Shown one piece after another: positions 1 to 6,057 of a stretch of DNA of 6,057 bases. Both the position numbers and the translations under genes were made by a program. Every line of letters begins with the position of its first letter. Position 1 is the stretch's first letter. The notes under the pieces were generated by a model. The model was not told where the DNA came from. It saw only the letters and a program-made list of their open reading frames with translations, and did not search any database. The DNA comes from a virus. The stretch lies in the IMG/VR virus record IMGVR_UViG_3300012991_000003, positions 1 to 6,057 of that record, one strand, 5' to 3'.

Positions 1-17
1 TTATGAACCAATAAATA

Positions 18-26
18 TTAATTAAA
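18..26 (+). promoter_or_regulatory. TTAATTAAA motif immediately 5' of the tape-measure-like gene start
   Basis: One of three exact TTAATTAAA copies in the window. All three are intergenic and lie 0-13 nt upstream of an ATG. I found no copy inside a coding region by eye. Function unknown. Confidence 0.25.
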
Positions 27-2987
27 ATGGCACAAGATATTGTTAGATTTATCAAGATCCAAACTGGTGATTCCGAAAGATCTATAAATCAATTAAATAA
101 AGAGATTAGCCAACTTTCTGATGAATTAAATGGATTGACAATCAATTCAAAAAGATATAATGAGGTTAGTAAAGAATTGGCTATTAGGCAGAAAGAATTA
201 ACGAGTATAAATCAATCTCTTCAAATAGCTAGTAGAACTACACAACAGAGATTTGAAAATCTTCAAAAATTTAGTTCTGGACTTACTGCTGGTTTTACAA
301 CTCTAGCGAGTACGTTTGCTTTACTAGGAACTGGTTCTGAGAATTTTGATAAAACAATTACTAAATTAACTGGAAGTTTAGCAATACTTCAATCTATAGG
401 TGGTTTAAAAGATCTTATAGAATCCTTTCCAGGAGTTATAAATGGTTTTAAAAATATAGGAGATTCAATCAAAAGATTCTTTACTGGGGCAGTTAATTCA
501 TTTGATCCCCTTGAAAGGAGACTTACTACTGCTGCTAATAATCTGAAGAATATAGGAAAGATTGATATAAAAGCAGATATAAAGACTTCTGGAACTTCTA
601 CTCAAATTAAGCCAATAGAATCTCCAGATATTGAAGATGTTAACCAAGATTTAGCTGAACAGCAAAAGCAAATCATTCCTTTAAATGAGCAGTGAGAAAA
701 GTACAATAAGCAATTAAAGGATTTAAAAACGGTTCAACCTAAATTGCAGAAACAAACCCAAGATTATACCAAACTTGCTGAGATTCAAGCAAATGCAGTT
801 AAAGAGTTAAAAGAGCAATACAATCTTTTAACTGAACTTCAACATTTAGGAACACCCTTAAGTCCTGAACAATATAAAACTTGAGACGAATTACCTGGAA
901 AAATCAAAGAAGCAGAAAAAGCTCTAGAAATTACGAATTCAGAGATAGCTAAGACTTCAGCAGTTTCTGGAGCAGTTGGAAAACAAATAGACGTTGTAGG
1001 AGGAAAGATTTCTGATACTGAGAAACAAATGAAATCTTTGGGAATTGCAACTTCTAATGTTGGAAGGGTTTTTGGTCAAATTCTTTCTACAGTTGGATGG
1101 TCACTTTTAATTGCAATAATTCTAAAAGGTATTCAAACGTTTTATAATTATATAAAAACAATTAAAACAGCTGCTAAAGAACAAAAAGAATTTAATCAAG
1201 AGTTGAATAAAACTACTAGTGAATTAAGTTCCAGTAAGTTAGCTAAGTTTTATGAGTTACAGAAAGCTTTTGAGGCTATTGGAAATTCTACTGAATCTAA
1301 GAAAAAGTTTCTTGAAGATTATTCTGATCAATTAAAAGAAACTGGTTTAGCAATTAATGACGTTCAAACAGCTGAAGATGCTTTTATAAACAATACAGAT
1401 AAATATGTACAAGCAATAATTGCTAGAGCTAAAATAGATGCTTATAAAGAGCAGATTACTAAGAAGACTCAAGAAACTCTAGAAAAGAATCTGGAATTAG
1501 AAAGGAAAATAGAATCTGGAGAATATAAAACATCTGCAATAGCACAATCTCAAGCAGGAGTAGTTGGTCAAGGATATATTTCAAAAGATGATCTAGAAAC
1601 CCAACGGAAAGTTGTAGAACAAGCAAGAAAGAAACTGGAAGATGAAATCAAAGAAAACAATAAAGAATTAAATGATTTCATTACCAATCAAGTAGGAAAT
1701 ATTTCTAAACTTAATAAAGAGTATTCTGCATTATGGGCTACTAACGATAAAGGTACTAAGGAAACTTCAAAACCAGATATTCCAGATATTCAACTTCCAG
1801 ATATTCAACCTCTACTGGATGAAATTTCAAAGGAAATAGATGATTTCATAGAAGCTGAATATGATGTTGTACTGGGAGACCGGGAGAAAGAATTAAGAGA
1901 GCTGGAAGAGAAATGATTTAAACCTTATAAGGAACTCTATGAAACGTATGGTGGTGATATAAACCAACTTACAGAGGAATATGAACGTAGAAGGAAAGAA
2001 ATTATAGATAAATATAAACCAGAACCAAAAGATACTCAGAAGGAATTGGACGATCAGTTAAAATTGATTAAAGAGTCATACGAACTAACCATTAGTCAAA
2101 TAACTAAAGAGTCTCCTAAAACTACTTATAAACAGTTTGGGCAAACGTTTCAGTATCAATCTGGTAAGGATATAGAGAAAGAGCTTAATAGTACTCTAAC
2201 ATATAATCAGAGAATTTATGAGGCTACTGTAGAAAGAATTAATAAAGAAAATGAAGCTTATCAGAATAGAATAAACCAGATTAATGAAGAATTAAAAGCT
2301 GAAAATCTTTCAGAAGAAGAAAAGAAAAAACTTCTAAAGGAAAGAGACAACCTTGAAAAGTCAATTGACAATAATGATATAGAACGAGAAAATGCTAAAG
2401 AACGCAGAGATCAAGCAAATACAGAAGCTTGAATAGCTAGACAAAAGAAAAGACAACAAGCAGCACAACAAACAGTTGCAGTTGTGTCTAGTGTAAATGC
2501 TAGTATGGGTTCTATATTTGATTCTATAGCCCAAATAAATCAAATGAATATAGACTCTGGAAAGCTTTCTGAGGAGCAAGTTAAAAAGGCAGAAAAACGA
2601 AGAGATAAAGCCTCTAAAACTGCAAAAGGATTTAAAGCTGCTCAAGCTGTTATAGATGCTCTTTCTGCTGCTAATGGAGCTTATTCTAGTATGTCAAGTA
2701 TTCCTTATGTTGGTCCTGCTTTAGGAGCTGCTGCTGCGGCTGCTGCTTTGATAGCTGGATATGCTAACGTTAAACAAATATTAGCTCAAGATGTTTCCGG
2801 TAGTACAATTCAACAAGCTACTGGTACTCCTGCAAGTGTAAATGTACCAGCAATTTCATATACGCGTAACCTAGTAGGAGATAAAGAATTAGAGGAAATA
2901 AATAAACCACAAGTTTGTTTAGTAGTTGAAGATTTAAATAACGTCCAAAATAGAATGCAAGTAAGAGAATCTAATGCTACGTTTTAG
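27..2987 (+). CDS. Large coiled-coil tape-measure-like (or ejection/internal virion) protein, 986 aa with TGA read as Trp
   Basis: Track ORFs 27-695, 1029-1916, 2046-2432 and 2484-2987 all share one frame (start coordinates divisible by 3). I translated the gaps by hand and they hold no TAA or TAG, only in-frame TGA at 693-695, 882-884, 1914-1916 and 2430-2432. The protein continues sensibly across each TGA: NEQ-W-EKYNKQLKD, QYKT-W-DELPGK, LEEK-W-FKPYKELYE, NTEA-W-IARQKKRQQ. Composition fits a tape measure protein: long K/E/Q-rich heptad-like stretches plus Gly/Ala-rich hydrophobic segments (GFTTLASTFALLGTG near nt 290-335, GWSLLIAIILKG near nt 1095-1130, YVGPALGAAAAAAALIAGYA near nt 2706-2765). 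The true stop is TAG at 2985-2987. The CDS itself is well supported. The functional call rests on composition only. Confidence 0.6.
1773..1811 (+). repeat. Short in-frame tandem repeat (CCAGATATT; CCAGATATTCAACTT; CCAGATATTCAACCT) encoding PDI-PDIQL-PDIQP
   Basis: Read directly: ccagatatt (1773-1781), ccagatattcaactt (1782-1796), ccagatattcaacct (1797-1811). It lies inside the tape-measure-like CDS. Confidence 0.7.
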
Positions 2988-3035
2988 AAATTAAAAAAGT
3001 TTCCATTTATAAAATTAGTTTATTTTTAGATAGTT

Positions 3036-3590
3036 ATGATACCTATTTATTATTTAACTTTAAATCCTGAAGATAAGATTAATTTTGTTTCTATTGTAGA
3101 TAATCCAGCTAATGAAATGTTTTTTGAAAAGTTTAGTGAACCTATGAAAGAGCAATTTAGTTTAGATACTGAGAAACAAATAATTACAGGATTGATTGTG
3201 AGTCCAGATACTCCTATACTCAGAAAGAAAGGAGATCAAGAATATTATGTTGCTTTTAATGAAGATTCAATTAGAGAAATAGCTAAAAAGATTATAGATA
3301 ATCCAGAAGCAGTTGATATTCAACATAATGGACAAAAAGTAGATGATGTTCATCTTTTAGAGATTTATATTAAAGATTCAGCCAGAAATATTAATCCAAA
3401 AGGCTTTGAAAGCGCTCCTGATGGAAGTTTATTTGCCAGTTATAAAGTAGATAATCTTAAACTGTGAGAAGGTCTTAAAACGGGTTTATTTGGCTTTTCT
3501 ATTGATGGTTTGTTTCATCTTGATAATTCAGAATTAGATGATTACAAAGAGATATATGAGATTTTAAACAAATTTAAAAACATTAAGTAA
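3036..3590 (+). CDS. Prohead (capsid maturation) protease, XkdF-like (Peptidase_S78_2-type), 184 aa with TGA read as Trp
   Basis: Track ORF 3036-3467 ends at TGA 3465-3467. The same frame runs on to TAA 3588-3590 (LKL-W-EGLKTGLFGFSIDGLFHLDNSELDDYKEIYEILNKFKNIK). From memory, these motifs match XkdF-type phage proteases: N-terminal FVSIVDNPANE, central VDIQHNGQ, and W-x-x-L/V-K-x-G-x-x-x-GFSI-x-G. The position directly upstream of scaffold-like and capsid genes fits the canonical protease-scaffold-capsid order. Confidence 0.72.
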
Positions 3591-4127
3591 ATGAATGAAT
3601 TAACAAAAATTAGACTTAGACTTTCTAAATTGCTTGTTAAACTTAGTGAAGTTCCAACAGATCTTGGAGTTCTCTATAAATCAGAGGATGGAGAATTTGT
3701 AGTTGGAGATCTTGTTTACGTTACTGAGGAATCTGGAGAGTTTATTCCTGCTCCTACTGGAGATTATAAAGCAGAGAAAGTTACTTACAAAGTAGTTGAT
3801 GGAAAGATCAGTGAGATTGTAGAAGAAACTGTAGAAGAACCAATTAAAGAGGAATTAGAAGATGTTCCTTCTCCAGATGGTTCTGTAGAAGCTGTTCCAG
3901 AAGCTATTGTAGAAATCAGAAAAGAAGTAAATGAGCTTTATAATATTGTAGATAAGCTTGTTAAGAAAATGGAAGAGATTGATTCTAAGATTGCTGATAA
4001 TCAGACTACTATTGAAAAGATGTCTTCTATGAGTGCTGCTAAGCCAGCTGTAGAAGAGATTGAGAAAGTTTCTAAGTCTCAATCATTTAAAGATATTGTA
4101 AATGAAGCTAAAAAGAATTTTCGTTAA
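3591..4127 (+). CDS. Scaffolding-like protein (acidic, C-terminal coiled coil), 178 aa
   Basis: The ATG at 3591 abuts the protease stop directly (TAA-ATG). The protein is very acidic and E/K/V-rich (VEETVEEPIKEELEDVPSPDGSVEAVPEAIVEIRKEVNELYNIVDKLVKKMEEIDSKI) and has no Trp. It lies between the protease and the major capsid gene. The call rests on position and composition only. A head decoration protein is an alternative. Confidence 0.5.
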   Translation: MNELTKIRLRLSKLLVKLSEVPTDLGVLYKSEDGEFVVGDLVYVTEESGEFIPAPTGDYKAEKVTYKVVDGKISEIVEETVEEPIKEELEDVPSPDGSVEAVPEAIVEIRKEVNELYNIVDKLVKKMEEIDSKIADNQTTIEKMSSMSAAKPAVEEIEKVSKSQSFKDIVNEAKKNFR

Positions 4128-4138
4128 ACTTTTAAAAA

Positions 4139-4147
4139 TTAATTAAA
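4139..4147 (+). promoter_or_regulatory. TTAATTAAA motif 1 nt upstream of the major capsid gene start
   Basis: Exact repeat of the motif at 18-26 and 5055-5063. Intergenic. Confidence 0.25.
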
Positions 4148-4148
4148 T

Positions 4149-5048
4149 ATGGCTAATCCTGTTATTACTACGCTGACTAATTATATTCAGCAAGAAAGAC
4201 TTCCTCTTATAAGCAAAGCTGTTTTGGGAGCTAAGTCTATTAAAATGTTTTCAAAGCAGACTGGTATTAAGACTTCTGCTGCTATTAATCTACTCACCAC
4301 TGACGTACAGTTCCAGGACGGGAAAGTATGTGGATTCCAAGATGCTGGTACTCAGGAGCTTTCTCAGAGAGTACTTACTACTGGAGTTATTAAGGTAAAT
4401 CTTGAATATTGCAAGAATAAGATGCTTGATAAATGGATGCAATATGAAATTTCTATAAAAGTTGGTGATGAGAGACTTCCATTCGAGCAGGAATTTGTAG
4501 AAGATGTTAATAAGGACATTCAAGCCAAACTTGAGAAAGCTGTTTGGCAGGGAGACACTGCTTCAGGGGATGAAAATCTCAAGTGGTTTGATGGTTTACT
4601 TAAGATTGCCACTAATGATGTTTCTGTAAATAAAGTAACCATTACTGGAACATCTGCTTACGATGATATTATGGCAGTTTATGCTGCTATTCCTGAGCAA
4701 GTTCTTGATAAGGCAGTTATCTTTGTAGGTGCTGATGTTTACAGAAAGTTTGGTACAGAGCTTGTAAATAAGAATTTATTCCATTTTGATAGTTCATATT
4801 CAAATGGCGAAGTTTATATTCCTGGTACTTCTACAAGAGTTGTTAAGGTTAACGGCTTAAATGGTACTGATAAAATCTTTGCTGCTGATCCAAATCGAGT
4901 TTATTTCGGTTGTGATATGGTAGATGATTCTGAGGAATATGATTTCTGGTATAGTAAGGATAACGATTCTTATCGTTTAAATGTTAGATTTAATGCTGGA
5001 GTTCAGTATCCATTCTCTAACGAGGTGGTATTAGGAGCTAAAGCGTAA
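4149..5048 (+). CDS. Major capsid protein (presumed HK97 fold), 299 aa
   Basis: Uninterrupted ORF ending in TAA. It follows the protease and scaffold, and its size fits small HK97-fold capsid proteins. The C-terminal region (SYRLNVRFNAGVQYPFSNEVVLG) resembles capsid-protein C-termini I recall. All four Trp residues use TGG and there is no TGA. The family assignment was not checked by search. Confidence 0.72.
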   Translation: MANPVITTLTNYIQQERLPLISKAVLGAKSIKMFSKQTGIKTSAAINLLTTDVQFQDGKVCGFQDAGTQELSQRVLTTGVIKVNLEYCKNKMLDKWMQYEISIKVGDERLPFEQEFVEDVNKDIQAKLEKAVWQGDTASGDENLKWFDGLLKIATNDVSVNKVTITGTSAYDDIMAVYAAIPEQVLDKAVIFVGADVYRKFGTELVNKNLFHFDSSYSNGEVYIPGTSTRVVKVNGLNGTDKIFAADPNRVYFGCDMVDDSEEYDFWYSKDNDSYRLNVRFNAGVQYPFSNEVVLGAKA

Positions 5049-5054
5049 TTTTTA

Positions 5055-5063
5055 TTAATTAAA
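5055..5063 (+). promoter_or_regulatory. TTAATTAAA motif 13 nt upstream of the GIY-YIG endonuclease start
   Basis: Exact repeat of the motif at 18-26 and 4139-4147. Intergenic, just after the capsid gene stop. Confidence 0.25.
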
Positions 5064-5076
5064 AAATTCACACAAA

Positions 5077-5733
5077 ATGAAACCTCAAAATTACACAGGA
5101 CTCATTTATTTAATCGTTAATGTTGTTAACAACAAAAAGTATGTTGGACAAACAGTTCAAAATATAAAAGATAGATTTTGGGCACATTGTGCTAAAAATT
5201 CTCAATGTCCAAAACTCAGAAATGCAATTCAAAAGTACGGTAAAGAAAACTTCAAAATCATAACTTTAAAAGTATTTGCTTGTAGTGATTTTGAAACTTT
5301 ACACAAACAATTAGACTACTGGGAAACTTGATATATTGAATATTACCATTCAGTAGAACAAGGATATAATTGCTCTGGTGGAGGACAATTTAGCACAGTG
5401 GTTTCTCAAGAAACCAGAGAAAAGTTGAGAAAAGCAATGACTGGAAAAACACATTCCGAAGAATGAAATAAGAAAATAGCGGTATCCCATAAGGGAATTA
5501 AACCTTCCGATGAAACAAGGAAGAAACTCAGTAAAATTCATAAAGGAAAAATACTTTTTTCTATAAGAAAACCGGTAGATCAGTTTGATTTAGACGGGAA
5601 TTTTATAAAACATTGAGATTGTATCTCTGATGCTAGGAAATTCTTCGGGGTGGATAATTCTCATATTTCTGCTGTTTGTAAGGGAAAAAGAGAATCAGCA
5701 TACGGATATAAATGAAAATATTCATTAATTTAA
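5077..5733 (+). CDS. Free-standing GIY-YIG homing endonuclease (I-TevI/Seg-like) with NUMOD3-type repeats and a C-terminal NUMOD1/IENR1-like DNA-binding module, 218 aa with TGA read as Trp
   Basis: Track ORF 5077-5331 ends at TGA 5329-5331. The hand-translated frame continues through TGA at 5464-5466, 5614-5616 and 5713-5715 to TAA 5731-5733. The catalytic-domain landmarks appear in I-TevI order: GLIY, KYVGQT, R in DRFWAH, KYGKENF, E in DYWET-W-YIEYY, and GYN. They are followed by SQETREKLRKAMTGKTHSEE-W-NKKIAVSHKGIKPSDETRKKLSKIHKGK (two NUMOD3-like repeats) and DLDGNFIKH-W-DCISDARKFFGVDNSHISAVCKGKRESAYGYK-W-KYSLI (helix-turn-helix tail with the typical G-aromatic-K-W-x-Y ending). Confidence 0.9.
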
Positions 5734-5748
5734 AAATAGAAAATAATT

Positions 5749-6057
5749 ATGGCTTGTCCTATTACATTGGCCGGAATTCAACTTTCGTGTGAGTCGAGTG
5801 TTGGTGGCCTTAAAACAATATATCTCGTTCAGTCTGATGATGTTACAGATGTAACTCTGAACGAGGAAGGTACTATGATTTCTAACATTACTTTAAAGTC
5901 TCCTGCTAAATGGCTTGAGTATCAATTCCGTAGAGGAACTAGTTCATTTACTTCTACGTTAAGCGCTGATGAGACTACGGGTAATAACTTTGTATCTTCA
6001 GAGATCACTTTGGTGTTTACTAAAATGGAAACATCTAAAAGAATTGAAGTACAAGCA
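5749..6057 (+). CDS. Virion structural protein, 5' partial (possible tail tube / major tail protein); runs off the window
   Basis: ATG at 5749, preceded by an in-frame TAG at 5737-5739. There are 103 open codons to the window edge (MACPITLAGIQLSCESSVGGLKTIYLVQSDDVTDVTLNEEGTMISNITLKSPAKWLEYQFRRGTSSFTSTLSADETTGNNFVSSEITLVFTKMETSKRIEVQA). It is absent from the ORF track, presumably because it is open-ended. The pattern C-x4-GG-hydrophobic-K-x-hydrophobic-Y-hydrophobic followed by beta-rich T/S segments reminds me of some major tail proteins. That is recollection, not an alignment. Confidence 0.4.
   Translation, partial: MACPITLAGIQLSCESSVGGLKTIYLVQSDDVTDVTLNEEGTMISNITLKSPAKWLEYQFRRGTSSFTSTLSADETTGNNFVSSEITLVFTKMETSKRIEVQA

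Follow-up and report, generated by a model that had tools for sequence, protein, structure and literature searches.

Genes of the window and their in-frame TGA codons

We analysed 6,057 nucleotides of viral DNA, i.e. positions 1 to 6,057 of the IMG/VR record IMGVR_UViG_3300012991_000003 (hereafter the window, meaning this whole stretch), and focused on the codon TGA, which is a sense codon in the genes of this window. The guanine and cytosine (GC) content is 32%, and six genes (g1 to g6), all on the plus strand, follow the 3' end of another gene. Coordinates are those of the window unless a contig is named, L001 being a related contig, and lengths are given in amino acids (aa).

1..25, plus strand: 3' end of an upstream NUMOD-type homing endonuclease gene, TAA at 23-25; it matches the end of the L001 gene 5045-5884 (...SYEPINID, then stop)
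27..2987, plus strand: g1, tape-measure-like protein, 986 aa; 4 TGA and 2 TGG codons, TAG end; matched by PHROG tape-measure profiles
3036..3590, plus strand: g2, XkdF-like head maturation protease (Peptidase_S78_2), 184 aa; 1 TGA, 0 TGG, TAA end
3591..4127, plus strand: g3, acidic protein, 178 aa, between the protease and capsid genes; no TGA, no TGG, TAA end
4149..5048, plus strand: g4, major capsid-like protein, 299 aa; 0 TGA, 4 TGG, TAA end; phrog_11320 and phrog_1623 (virion structural protein)
5077..5733, plus strand: g5, GIY-YIG/NUMOD homing endonuclease, 218 aa; 4 TGA, 2 TGG, TAA end
5749..6057, plus strand: g6, virion protein, 5' part of about 174 aa; 0 TGA; orthologue at L001 11575-12099

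When the window is read with translation table 11, three of the six genes are broken and each break is a TGA. Reading TGA as sense restores single open reading frames (ORFs) of 986, 184 and 218 aa (27-2987, 3036-3590 and 5077-5733), and ORF calling confirmed an earlier sequence-only reading of this DNA, according to which these three genes are uninterrupted by TAA or TAG and need no frameshift. The same reading held that genes end on TAA or TAG and never on TGA, which proved right for g1 to g5 (TAG, TAA, TAA, TAA and TAA, respectively). The nine TGA codons that it reported, at 693, 882, 1914, 2430, 3465, 5329, 5464, 5614 and 5713, were all found in frame at exactly these positions. All lie on the plus strand, and their contexts (tryptophan, Trp or W; other residues in standard codes) are the following.

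693..695, plus strand: TGA, g1 residue 223; weakly conserved column, relatives having TGA, TGG or Leu, Val or Ile codons
882..884, plus strand: TGA, g1 residue 286; closer relatives have TGA, distant ones TTT, GCT and other codons
1914..1916, plus strand: TGA, g1 residue 630; aromatic column, with TGA in closer relatives (5) and TAT/TAC (7) or TGG (3) in distant ones
2430..2432, plus strand: TGA, g1 residue 802; no conserved Trp, GCA/GCT (Ala) at 50-90% identity and TAT in distant relatives
3465..3467, plus strand: TGA, g2 residue 144; near-invariant Trp column, the distinct family genes having TGG (10/22) or TGA (12/22)
5329..5331, plus strand: TGA, g5 residue 85, two residues past the catalytic Glu; TGG in the three closest relatives
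5464..5466, plus strand: TGA, g5 residue 130, in a NUMOD3 repeat; column mainly Thr in distant homologues, no conserved Trp
5614..5616, plus strand: TGA, g5 residue 180, in a NUMOD1-like module; W 31, F 30 and Y 26 of 94 distant homologues
5713..5715, plus strand: TGA, g5 residue 213, in a C-terminal G-x-x-W-x-Y motif; W in 78 of 90 distant homologues

The off-frames of the three recoded genes contain TAA and TAG at a combined rate of 8.3% per codon; the long open frames are thus not due to chance, the probability of a frame staying open past the first TGA being about 2e-29 (763 codons), 3e-2 (40 codons) and 1e-5 (133 codons). In the same genes, the share of TGA among the codons is 0.65% in frame and 2.9% off frame, the low in-frame rate being expected of a Trp-like sense codon. 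Plus-strand ORF cover of window positions 1-5748 rises from 79.5% with table 11 to 97.6% with TGA as sense, and the control readings, with TAG or TAA as sense, reach 82.1% and 82.2%, respectively. Furthermore, single profile matches span the TGA sites (Peptidase_S78_2 over protein residues 44-158, GIY-YIG over 8-98 and NUMOD1 over 165-197), and matches of tape-measure PHROG profiles at residues 197-449 and 661-927 of g1 likewise run across them. Substitutions 3' of the TGA sites show a coding-like codon-position bias, which is weak because the tape-measure gene evolves fast.

Source lineage, composite genome and relatives

The 299-aa capsid protein is encoded identically on contigs retrieved from 65 assembly-index blocks, 23 of which were read. 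Matching contigs include several of about 26.3 kb and a pig-gut assembly, the window being 92-98% identical to them (g1 shows this identity in L001, L008 and L009), and a whole-window DNA search of 50,697 phage records gave no match. L001 represents 20.9 kb of a 26,273-bp contig and holds 29 genes with 43 in-frame TGA codons, 34 TGG codons and no TGA terminator. Its plus-strand ORF cover increases from 64% to 93% when TGA is sense, so that the gain in coding density anticipated by the sequence-only reading was seen both in the window and on this longer contig.

The missing 5.4 kb were reached via a 951-aa tail protein, giving a 26.7-kb composite circle whose genes lie nearly all on one strand. 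Its 33 genes end on TAA (27) or TAG (6) and none on TGA, and 61% of the genes contain at least one TGA. More distant relatives are likewise TGA-recoded, i.e. L013, L016 and an IMG/VR sub-clade of about 31 kb (capsid 57% identical), and no TGA terminator was found in L013, L016 or the IMG/VR relative. Two further relatives, L011 and L012, use the standard code: their terminase is 35% identical, they have the portal and DUF6712 genes in common with the lineage, table 11 covers 86-90% of their sequence, and they contain no in-frame TGA. These two genomes have 38% GC and a BACON-domain tail protein, and TGA stops occur in just 1 of 23 and 3 of 24 of their genes, a usage consistent with TGA stops having been lost before the codon was recaptured.

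Amino acid encoded by TGA

An X was placed at every TGA in the search queries to avoid bias. For g2, columns were counted over the best 150 of 2663 matches (profile homologues at E<=1e-3), each representing a 50%-identity cluster, and for g5 over 105 distant homologues. The column of the TGA at 3465, for which a conserved aromatic or Trp position in the protease had been proposed, holds Trp in 143 of the 147 non-gap XkdF-like representatives. Similarly, the C-terminal endonuclease TGA at 5713 falls at a Trp position as suggested from the sequence (78 of 90 distant homologues; conservation of W at this residue reaches at least 90% in alignment A2), and the column at 5614 is aromatic in 87 of 94 homologues (W, F or Y). 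The likeness drawn between the TGA at 5329 and I-TevI did not hold in the same way: the profile alignment places it opposite the Phe, not the Trp, of E-N-F-W-I, and distant homologues vary in this column (Y, E, L, F).

The terminase of L001 contains seven TGA and no TGG codons. Among 86 distant homologues, Trp is invariant at four of the seven TGA columns and Tyr at one; the two terminase homologues whose DNA was read use TGG for Trp throughout the gene and come from standard-code genomes. In the family codon alignments, the partners of TGA are TGA itself (34%), TGG (21%), TAT (9%) and TTT (6%), and TGG sites display the same partner profile. Non-TGA partners are TGG in 19 of 24 cases at 90% identity or more and in 119 of 169 at 60-90%, these codon-pair counts being phylogenetically non-independent. 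Finally, Trp content would be 0.6% from TGG alone and 1.25% from TGG plus TGA, compared with 1.4-1.5% in the standard-code relatives. Judged from the W-dominated columns of protease, endonuclease and L001 terminase, the pairing with TGG and the Trp content, TGA is Trp, which upholds what the sequence-only reading had put forward as most likely.

Glycine is the other sense reading to be considered (code 25, used by phages of Absconditabacteria and Gracilibacteria): tables 4 and 25 give the same ORFs, and these bacteria are low-GC, walled and found in animal guts, traits that would fit the lineage. However, Gly is not among the commonest residues listed for distant homologues at any of 12 TGA columns, and Gly codons account for only about 2% of TGA partners in the family alignments, against the 21% of TGG. 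The Gly-dominated columns that were to point to code 25 were thus not observed, and this code is excluded, with a negligible residual probability.

Real stops would imply that the genes are pseudogenes or assembly errors, or that TGA marks selenocysteine sites or occasional programmed readthrough. The genes do look fragmented under table 11, and some gene callers split them (L007-L010). Against this, dozens of independent contigs, obtained in different studies, have TGA at these same sites, the interruptions are only TGA and never TAA or TAG, and homology as well as codon-position substitution bias persist past TGA. Moreover, TGA columns are Trp columns, no RNA resembling a selenocysteine insertion sequence (SECIS) was found, and seven TGA codons in an essential terminase rule out rare readthrough. 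We therefore regard real stops as extremely improbable.

Distribution of TGA among genes

TGA and TGG are unevenly distributed among the genes of the composite genome (Monte Carlo p 0.001). Family counts were made over distinct orthologues (24 versions of the capsid gene, 24 of the scaffold gene and 25 of g6), the scaffold gene being g3, which is probably a scaffold as judged by position only.

Capsid: TGA 0, TGG 92
Scaffold: TGA 0, TGG 14
g6: TGA 3, TGG 71
Portal: TGA 30, TGG 110
Endolysin: TGA 35, TGG 28
135-aa protein: TGA 22, TGG 6
Terminase: TGA 44, TGG 11

Capsid and scaffold genes together thus have no TGA among 106 Trp codons, and TGA accounts for 80% of those of the terminase. Avoidance in capsid and scaffold suggests that UGA decoding is costly or limiting. 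Putative replication genes are also free of TGA, i.e. that of an HTH_36 protein (4 versions) and a helicase-like gene of the IMG/VR sub-clade (572 aa, 5 TGG). These two would fit a pattern in which early genes are free of TGA and late genes enriched in it, whereas the avoidance in capsid and scaffold and the presence of TGA in small genes do not.

The helicase-like gene lies on the minus strand at 23098-24816 of IMGVR_UViG_3300045988_023824 (merged L018+L042). It adjoins an AT-rich divergent intergenic region of about 400 bp and has no counterpart in the lineage of the window.

Host of the phage

The lineage encodes a 1268-aa protein with six BACON repeats (114 bits, E 2.7e-33). The BACON domain is typical of Bacteroidota and their phages. 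Peptidoglycan hydrolases are present in all three sub-clades: a Peptidase_M15_3 protein (E 3.8e-19) in the lineage, Glyco_hydro_108 with PG_binding_3 in the relative L016 and, in the IMG/VR relative, an M15-like enzyme preceded by a small membrane protein, an arrangement that resembles a lysis cassette. Since such hydrolases are of no use against wall-less cells, a Mollicutes host is unlikely. A Shine-Dalgarno core precedes only 2 of the 33 composite genes and the upstream regions are 81% A+T, which fits Bacteroidota. Among cultured phages, capsid tblastn gave weak matches to Nonlabens (Flavobacteriia) phages alone, and the searches revealed no similarity to Mycoplasma or Spiroplasma phages. 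The Bacteroidota-type -7 motif TAnnTTTG occurs three times in 1.3 kb of intergenic DNA versus 0.7 per kb genome-wide, too few to count as evidence. A capsid-alignment scan of genome contigs returned one phage-sized contig of a metagenome-assembled genome, giving no host.

The phage might instead use the code of a host that natively reads UGA as Trp (Mycoplasmatales or another such lineage, for example the Patescibacteriota family JAKLIH01), in which case no phage decoder would be needed. In keeping with this, neither the composite genome nor two sister sub-clades yielded a suppressor transfer RNA (tRNA), TGA does not occur as a stop, and it is present in 61% of genes and most modules. The cultured table-4 phages have mostly Mycoplasma or Spiroplasma as hosts (PMC11210395), and a walled Patescibacteriota lineage with UGA-to-Trp exists (PMC13092985). 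In a 2026 survey, UGA-to-Trp is confined to Mycoplasmatales, one family of Patescibacteriota and several endosymbionts, Bacteroidota not being listed (PMC13092985). The peptidoglycan hydrolases, the six BACON repeats, the lack of similarity to Mycoplasma or Spiroplasma phages and the existence of standard-code relatives nevertheless argue against a native code. So do the 0 of 106 TGA in capsid and scaffold, unexpected for an ordinary host codon at 30% GC, and the proportion of genes with TGA, which is below the roughly 90% of phages of recoded hosts (bioRxiv 10.1101/2021.08.26.457843). We hold a native-code host to be unlikely, though it is the most serious of the alternatives.

We infer a standard-code host that has a cell wall and is Bacteroidota-like, and favour it over a code-4 host. 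Of the two hosts that the sequence-only reading had left side by side, a standard-code host of a recoded phage is preferred on indirect evidence, and a code-4 Mollicute disfavoured, in view of the hydrolases, the six BACON repeats, the scarce Shine-Dalgarno sites and the standard-code relatives.

Decoding of TGA

ARAGORN detected no tRNA gene in any of 58 loci (L001-L058), nor in the window or the composite genome. The tRNA with a UCA anticodon that the sequence-only reading had proposed to look for was not found in the composite genome by ARAGORN, relaxed ARAGORN or Rfam: relaxed settings gave just low-scoring calls within coding regions, and Rfam at permissive E-values gave neither a tRNA-like match nor a SECIS-like RNA. 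Taken together, L018, L042 and L035 tile the whole gene order of the IMG/VR sub-clade and contain no tRNA. Neither a release factor nor a Trp-tRNA synthetase gene was seen. A tRNA-Trp(CCA)-like fold at 4539-4626 of the composite genome was rejected as spurious, its acceptor stem being mismatched, its D arm limited to 3 bp and the T-loop consensus absent.

As no phage tRNA was found, the phage relies on a host component or an unrecognised product, and with seven TGA codons in the essential terminase each of them must be read efficiently. Host components would decode UGA in place of a phage suppressor tRNA. The likeliest route would be that the host tRNA-Trp reads UGA while termination by release factor 2 (RF2) is weak or blocked by a phage product. 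UGA decoding would probably be limiting, so that abundant proteins (capsid, scaffold, g6) avoid TGA and low-copy enzymes (terminase, endolysin, homing endonucleases) place it at most of their Trp codons.

We put forward only tentatively the complete scheme, i.e. a 26-31 kb, tRNA-less phage lineage that infects standard-code Bacteroidota and efficiently reads UGA as Trp through a co-opted host tRNA-Trp and/or an RF2 disabled by a small unrecognised phage protein. TGA would then serve as a dosage dial, being kept out of capsid and scaffold genes and frequent in those of the terminase, endolysin and homing endonucleases. A candidate for the host tRNA in this scheme is a CCA-anticodon variant with a shortened anticodon stem. 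Variants of tRNA-Trp(CCA) having an anticodon stem of 4 bp read UGA and occur in diverse bacteria, and the expression analysis of that survey included Bacteroides oleiciplenus (PMC13092985).

Comparison with known systems

TGA-to-Trp recoding is established in gut phages of standard-code hosts, and a suppressor tRNA with a TCA anticodon (Sup-TCA) was reported in just 35% and 15% of code-4 phages (bioRxiv 10.1101/2021.08.26.457843; PMC11210395). Code-4 phages are rare and represent 0.08% of gut viral operational taxonomic units (PMC11210395). Genes with in-frame stops amount to 26-71% in recoded phages of standard-code hosts and to about 90% with code-25 hosts (bioRxiv 10.1101/2021.08.26.457843). 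Recoded clades with small genomes (22-34 kb) have been described, including one that infects Prevotella in pigs, and TGA stops were found to be lost before recoding (bioRxiv 10.1101/2021.08.26.457843; PMC11210395). In the published picture, recoding concerns the structural genes.

The lineage studied here resembles the alternatively coded gut phages (Borges et al.; Cook et al.) in its gut habitat (including pig), low GC and abandonment of TGA stops, in having TGA opposite Trp in terminase and other proteins, and in its standard-code relatives hardly using TGA stops. With 61% of genes containing TGA, it falls inside the range reported for recoded phages of standard-code hosts and, as in most reported code-4 phages, no Sup-TCA tRNA is detectable. 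It differs from the alternatively coded gut phages in that TGA is not concentrated in structural genes and no clean standard-code early block is visible. Agate and Jade, the TGA-recoded lineages treated in detail in that work, are far larger (about 127-200 kb) and carry suppressor tRNAs, Jade also release factor 1 (RF1) and a Trp-tRNA synthetase (TrpRS), whereas the present genome has 26.7 kb and no tRNA. In size, habitat, likely Bacteroidota host and high share of recoded genes, it resembles the Garnet clade (about 24-34 kb, Prevotella, pig gut, 71% of genes recoded; Borges et al.). The Garnet genomes described, however, are TAG-recoded rather than TGA-recoded. They are also temperate and encode an integrase in which the recoded codon is avoided, whereas the 26.7-kb composite genome revealed no integrase.

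TGA as Trp without need for a phage tRNA and low GC are also features of Mycoplasma and Spiroplasma phages, in which code 4 is native. The peptidoglycan hydrolase, the BACON repeats, the absence of sequence similarity and the avoidance of TGA in the most abundant proteins set the lineage apart from them. TGA- or TAG-recoded crAss-like phages (Crassvirales) have in common with it a likely Bacteroidota host, a BACON-domain protein and a recoded stop. Crassvirales genomes measure about 90-105 kb, their code use is block-wise and they carry suppressor tRNAs. Unlike them, the lineage spans 26-31 kb, belongs to other capsid and terminase families and has no DNA-level match to the phage collection. 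We infer that this phage joins the stop-codon-recoded gut phages already described and not the phages of a code-4 Mollicute. It adds to what is known a compact, fully tiled, tRNA-less genome and a marked TGA/TGG split by gene.

Other features of the window and of its relatives

The protease g2 scores 32.3 bits against PF14550 (cut-off 24) and also matches phrog_3017 (head maturation protease); it sits upstream of the scaffold and capsid genes, as is the case for XkdF-like prohead protease. An Rfam match of g3 to PYLIS_3 (E 4.5) was dismissed as chance. For g5, Pfam matches are GIY-YIG PF01541 (41.6 bits, cut-off 22.6, E 1.6e-10) and NUMOD3 (24.2, cut-off 20.4), the NUMOD1 match being below the Pfam cut-off; g5 also matches phrog_314 (E 7e-34). 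A profile of g5 homologues reached the I-TevI catalytic domain 1LN0 (E 4.6e-15) and was required for this, as a single-sequence search against PDB gave chance matches only. For g6, tail tube is a guess.

The tape-measure gene g1 is a mosaic: its segments 594-1146 and 1526-1643 are unalignable at the DNA level with several relatives that are otherwise 92-98% identical, a pattern of segment replacements or indels, and its length varies from 956 to 990 aa among close relatives. The slot between capsid and g6 (window 5049-5748) is polymorphic as well, different GIY-YIG endonucleases occupying it in otherwise near-identical genomes (L001 10901-11574; L054 9971-10737; L007 7062-7759), and the alignment of the window with L001 ends at 5066. 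The endonuclease has 218 aa in the window, L008 and L009, 210 aa in L001-L006, 240 aa in L054-L057 and 152 aa, as a database call, in L007 and L010. These genes are themselves rich in TGA, and the variation of the slot suggests active homing or replacement.

Upstream of the HTH_36 gene, L001 has an intergenic stretch of 278 bp (16106-16383) that is GC-richer than its flanks. It holds four spaced GGTGGTT-type repeats (AAGGTGGTTGTA, AAGGTGGTTCTG, AGAGTGGTTAGG and GGGTGGTTCTG) and may be a replication origin, as the repeats are iteron-like. In some variants of about 28 kb, an insertion (L055 17342-18838; L056 17342-19261) displays EcoRI_methylase similarity over 4-5 consecutive short ORFs, even with code 4; the methylase gene may be decayed or frameshifted, or may require another kind of recoding. 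The 148,631-bp record IMGVR_UViG_3300045988_175865 (L019/L035) carries a relative of about 31 kb at the contig end, and the readable 7 kb upstream are still phage. As it amounts to about five genome lengths, it is probably a concatemer or strain mix and not a prophage.

Conclusions

Taken as a whole, we consider it likely that the window represents the block that holds the tape-measure, protease, scaffold, capsid and endonuclease genes in a tailed phage of about 26-27 kb, found in pig-gut and other metagenomes, and that its lineage reads TGA as Trp, terminates only on TAA or TAG and infects a walled, Bacteroidota-like host whose components would do the decoding. Several points weigh against this view. 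The decoding step is unexplained, given that no gene for a suppressor tRNA, release factor or Trp-tRNA synthetase was found. TGA is spread across most modules rather than confined to one late block, and also occurs in small genes by the putative replication region; a host that natively reads TGA fits this scatter better than a timed code switch does. The host lacks direct identification by a CRISPR (clustered regularly interspaced short palindromic repeats) spacer match or a prophage junction, and BACON domains and scarce Shine-Dalgarno sites are typical of Bacteroidota without being exclusive to them. Lastly, besides the non-independence of the codon-pair counts, four of the nine TGA sites of the window lie in poorly conserved columns and are silent on the amino acid; all four sites of g1 are in poorly conserved columns and, taken alone, uninformative on residue identity.

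Pipelines based on table 11 would shred the genes of this phage, as the split public calls of L007-L010 already illustrate. That most code-4 phages have no detectable suppressor tRNA is recognised as a gap in the model of recoding. The present lineage is a compact case for testing, with a fully tiled, tRNA-less genome of 26.7 kb, indications of a walled Bacteroidota-like host, standard-code relatives and a sharp TGA/TGG split, in which the search for the UGA-reading factor is tractable because few genes are of unknown function.

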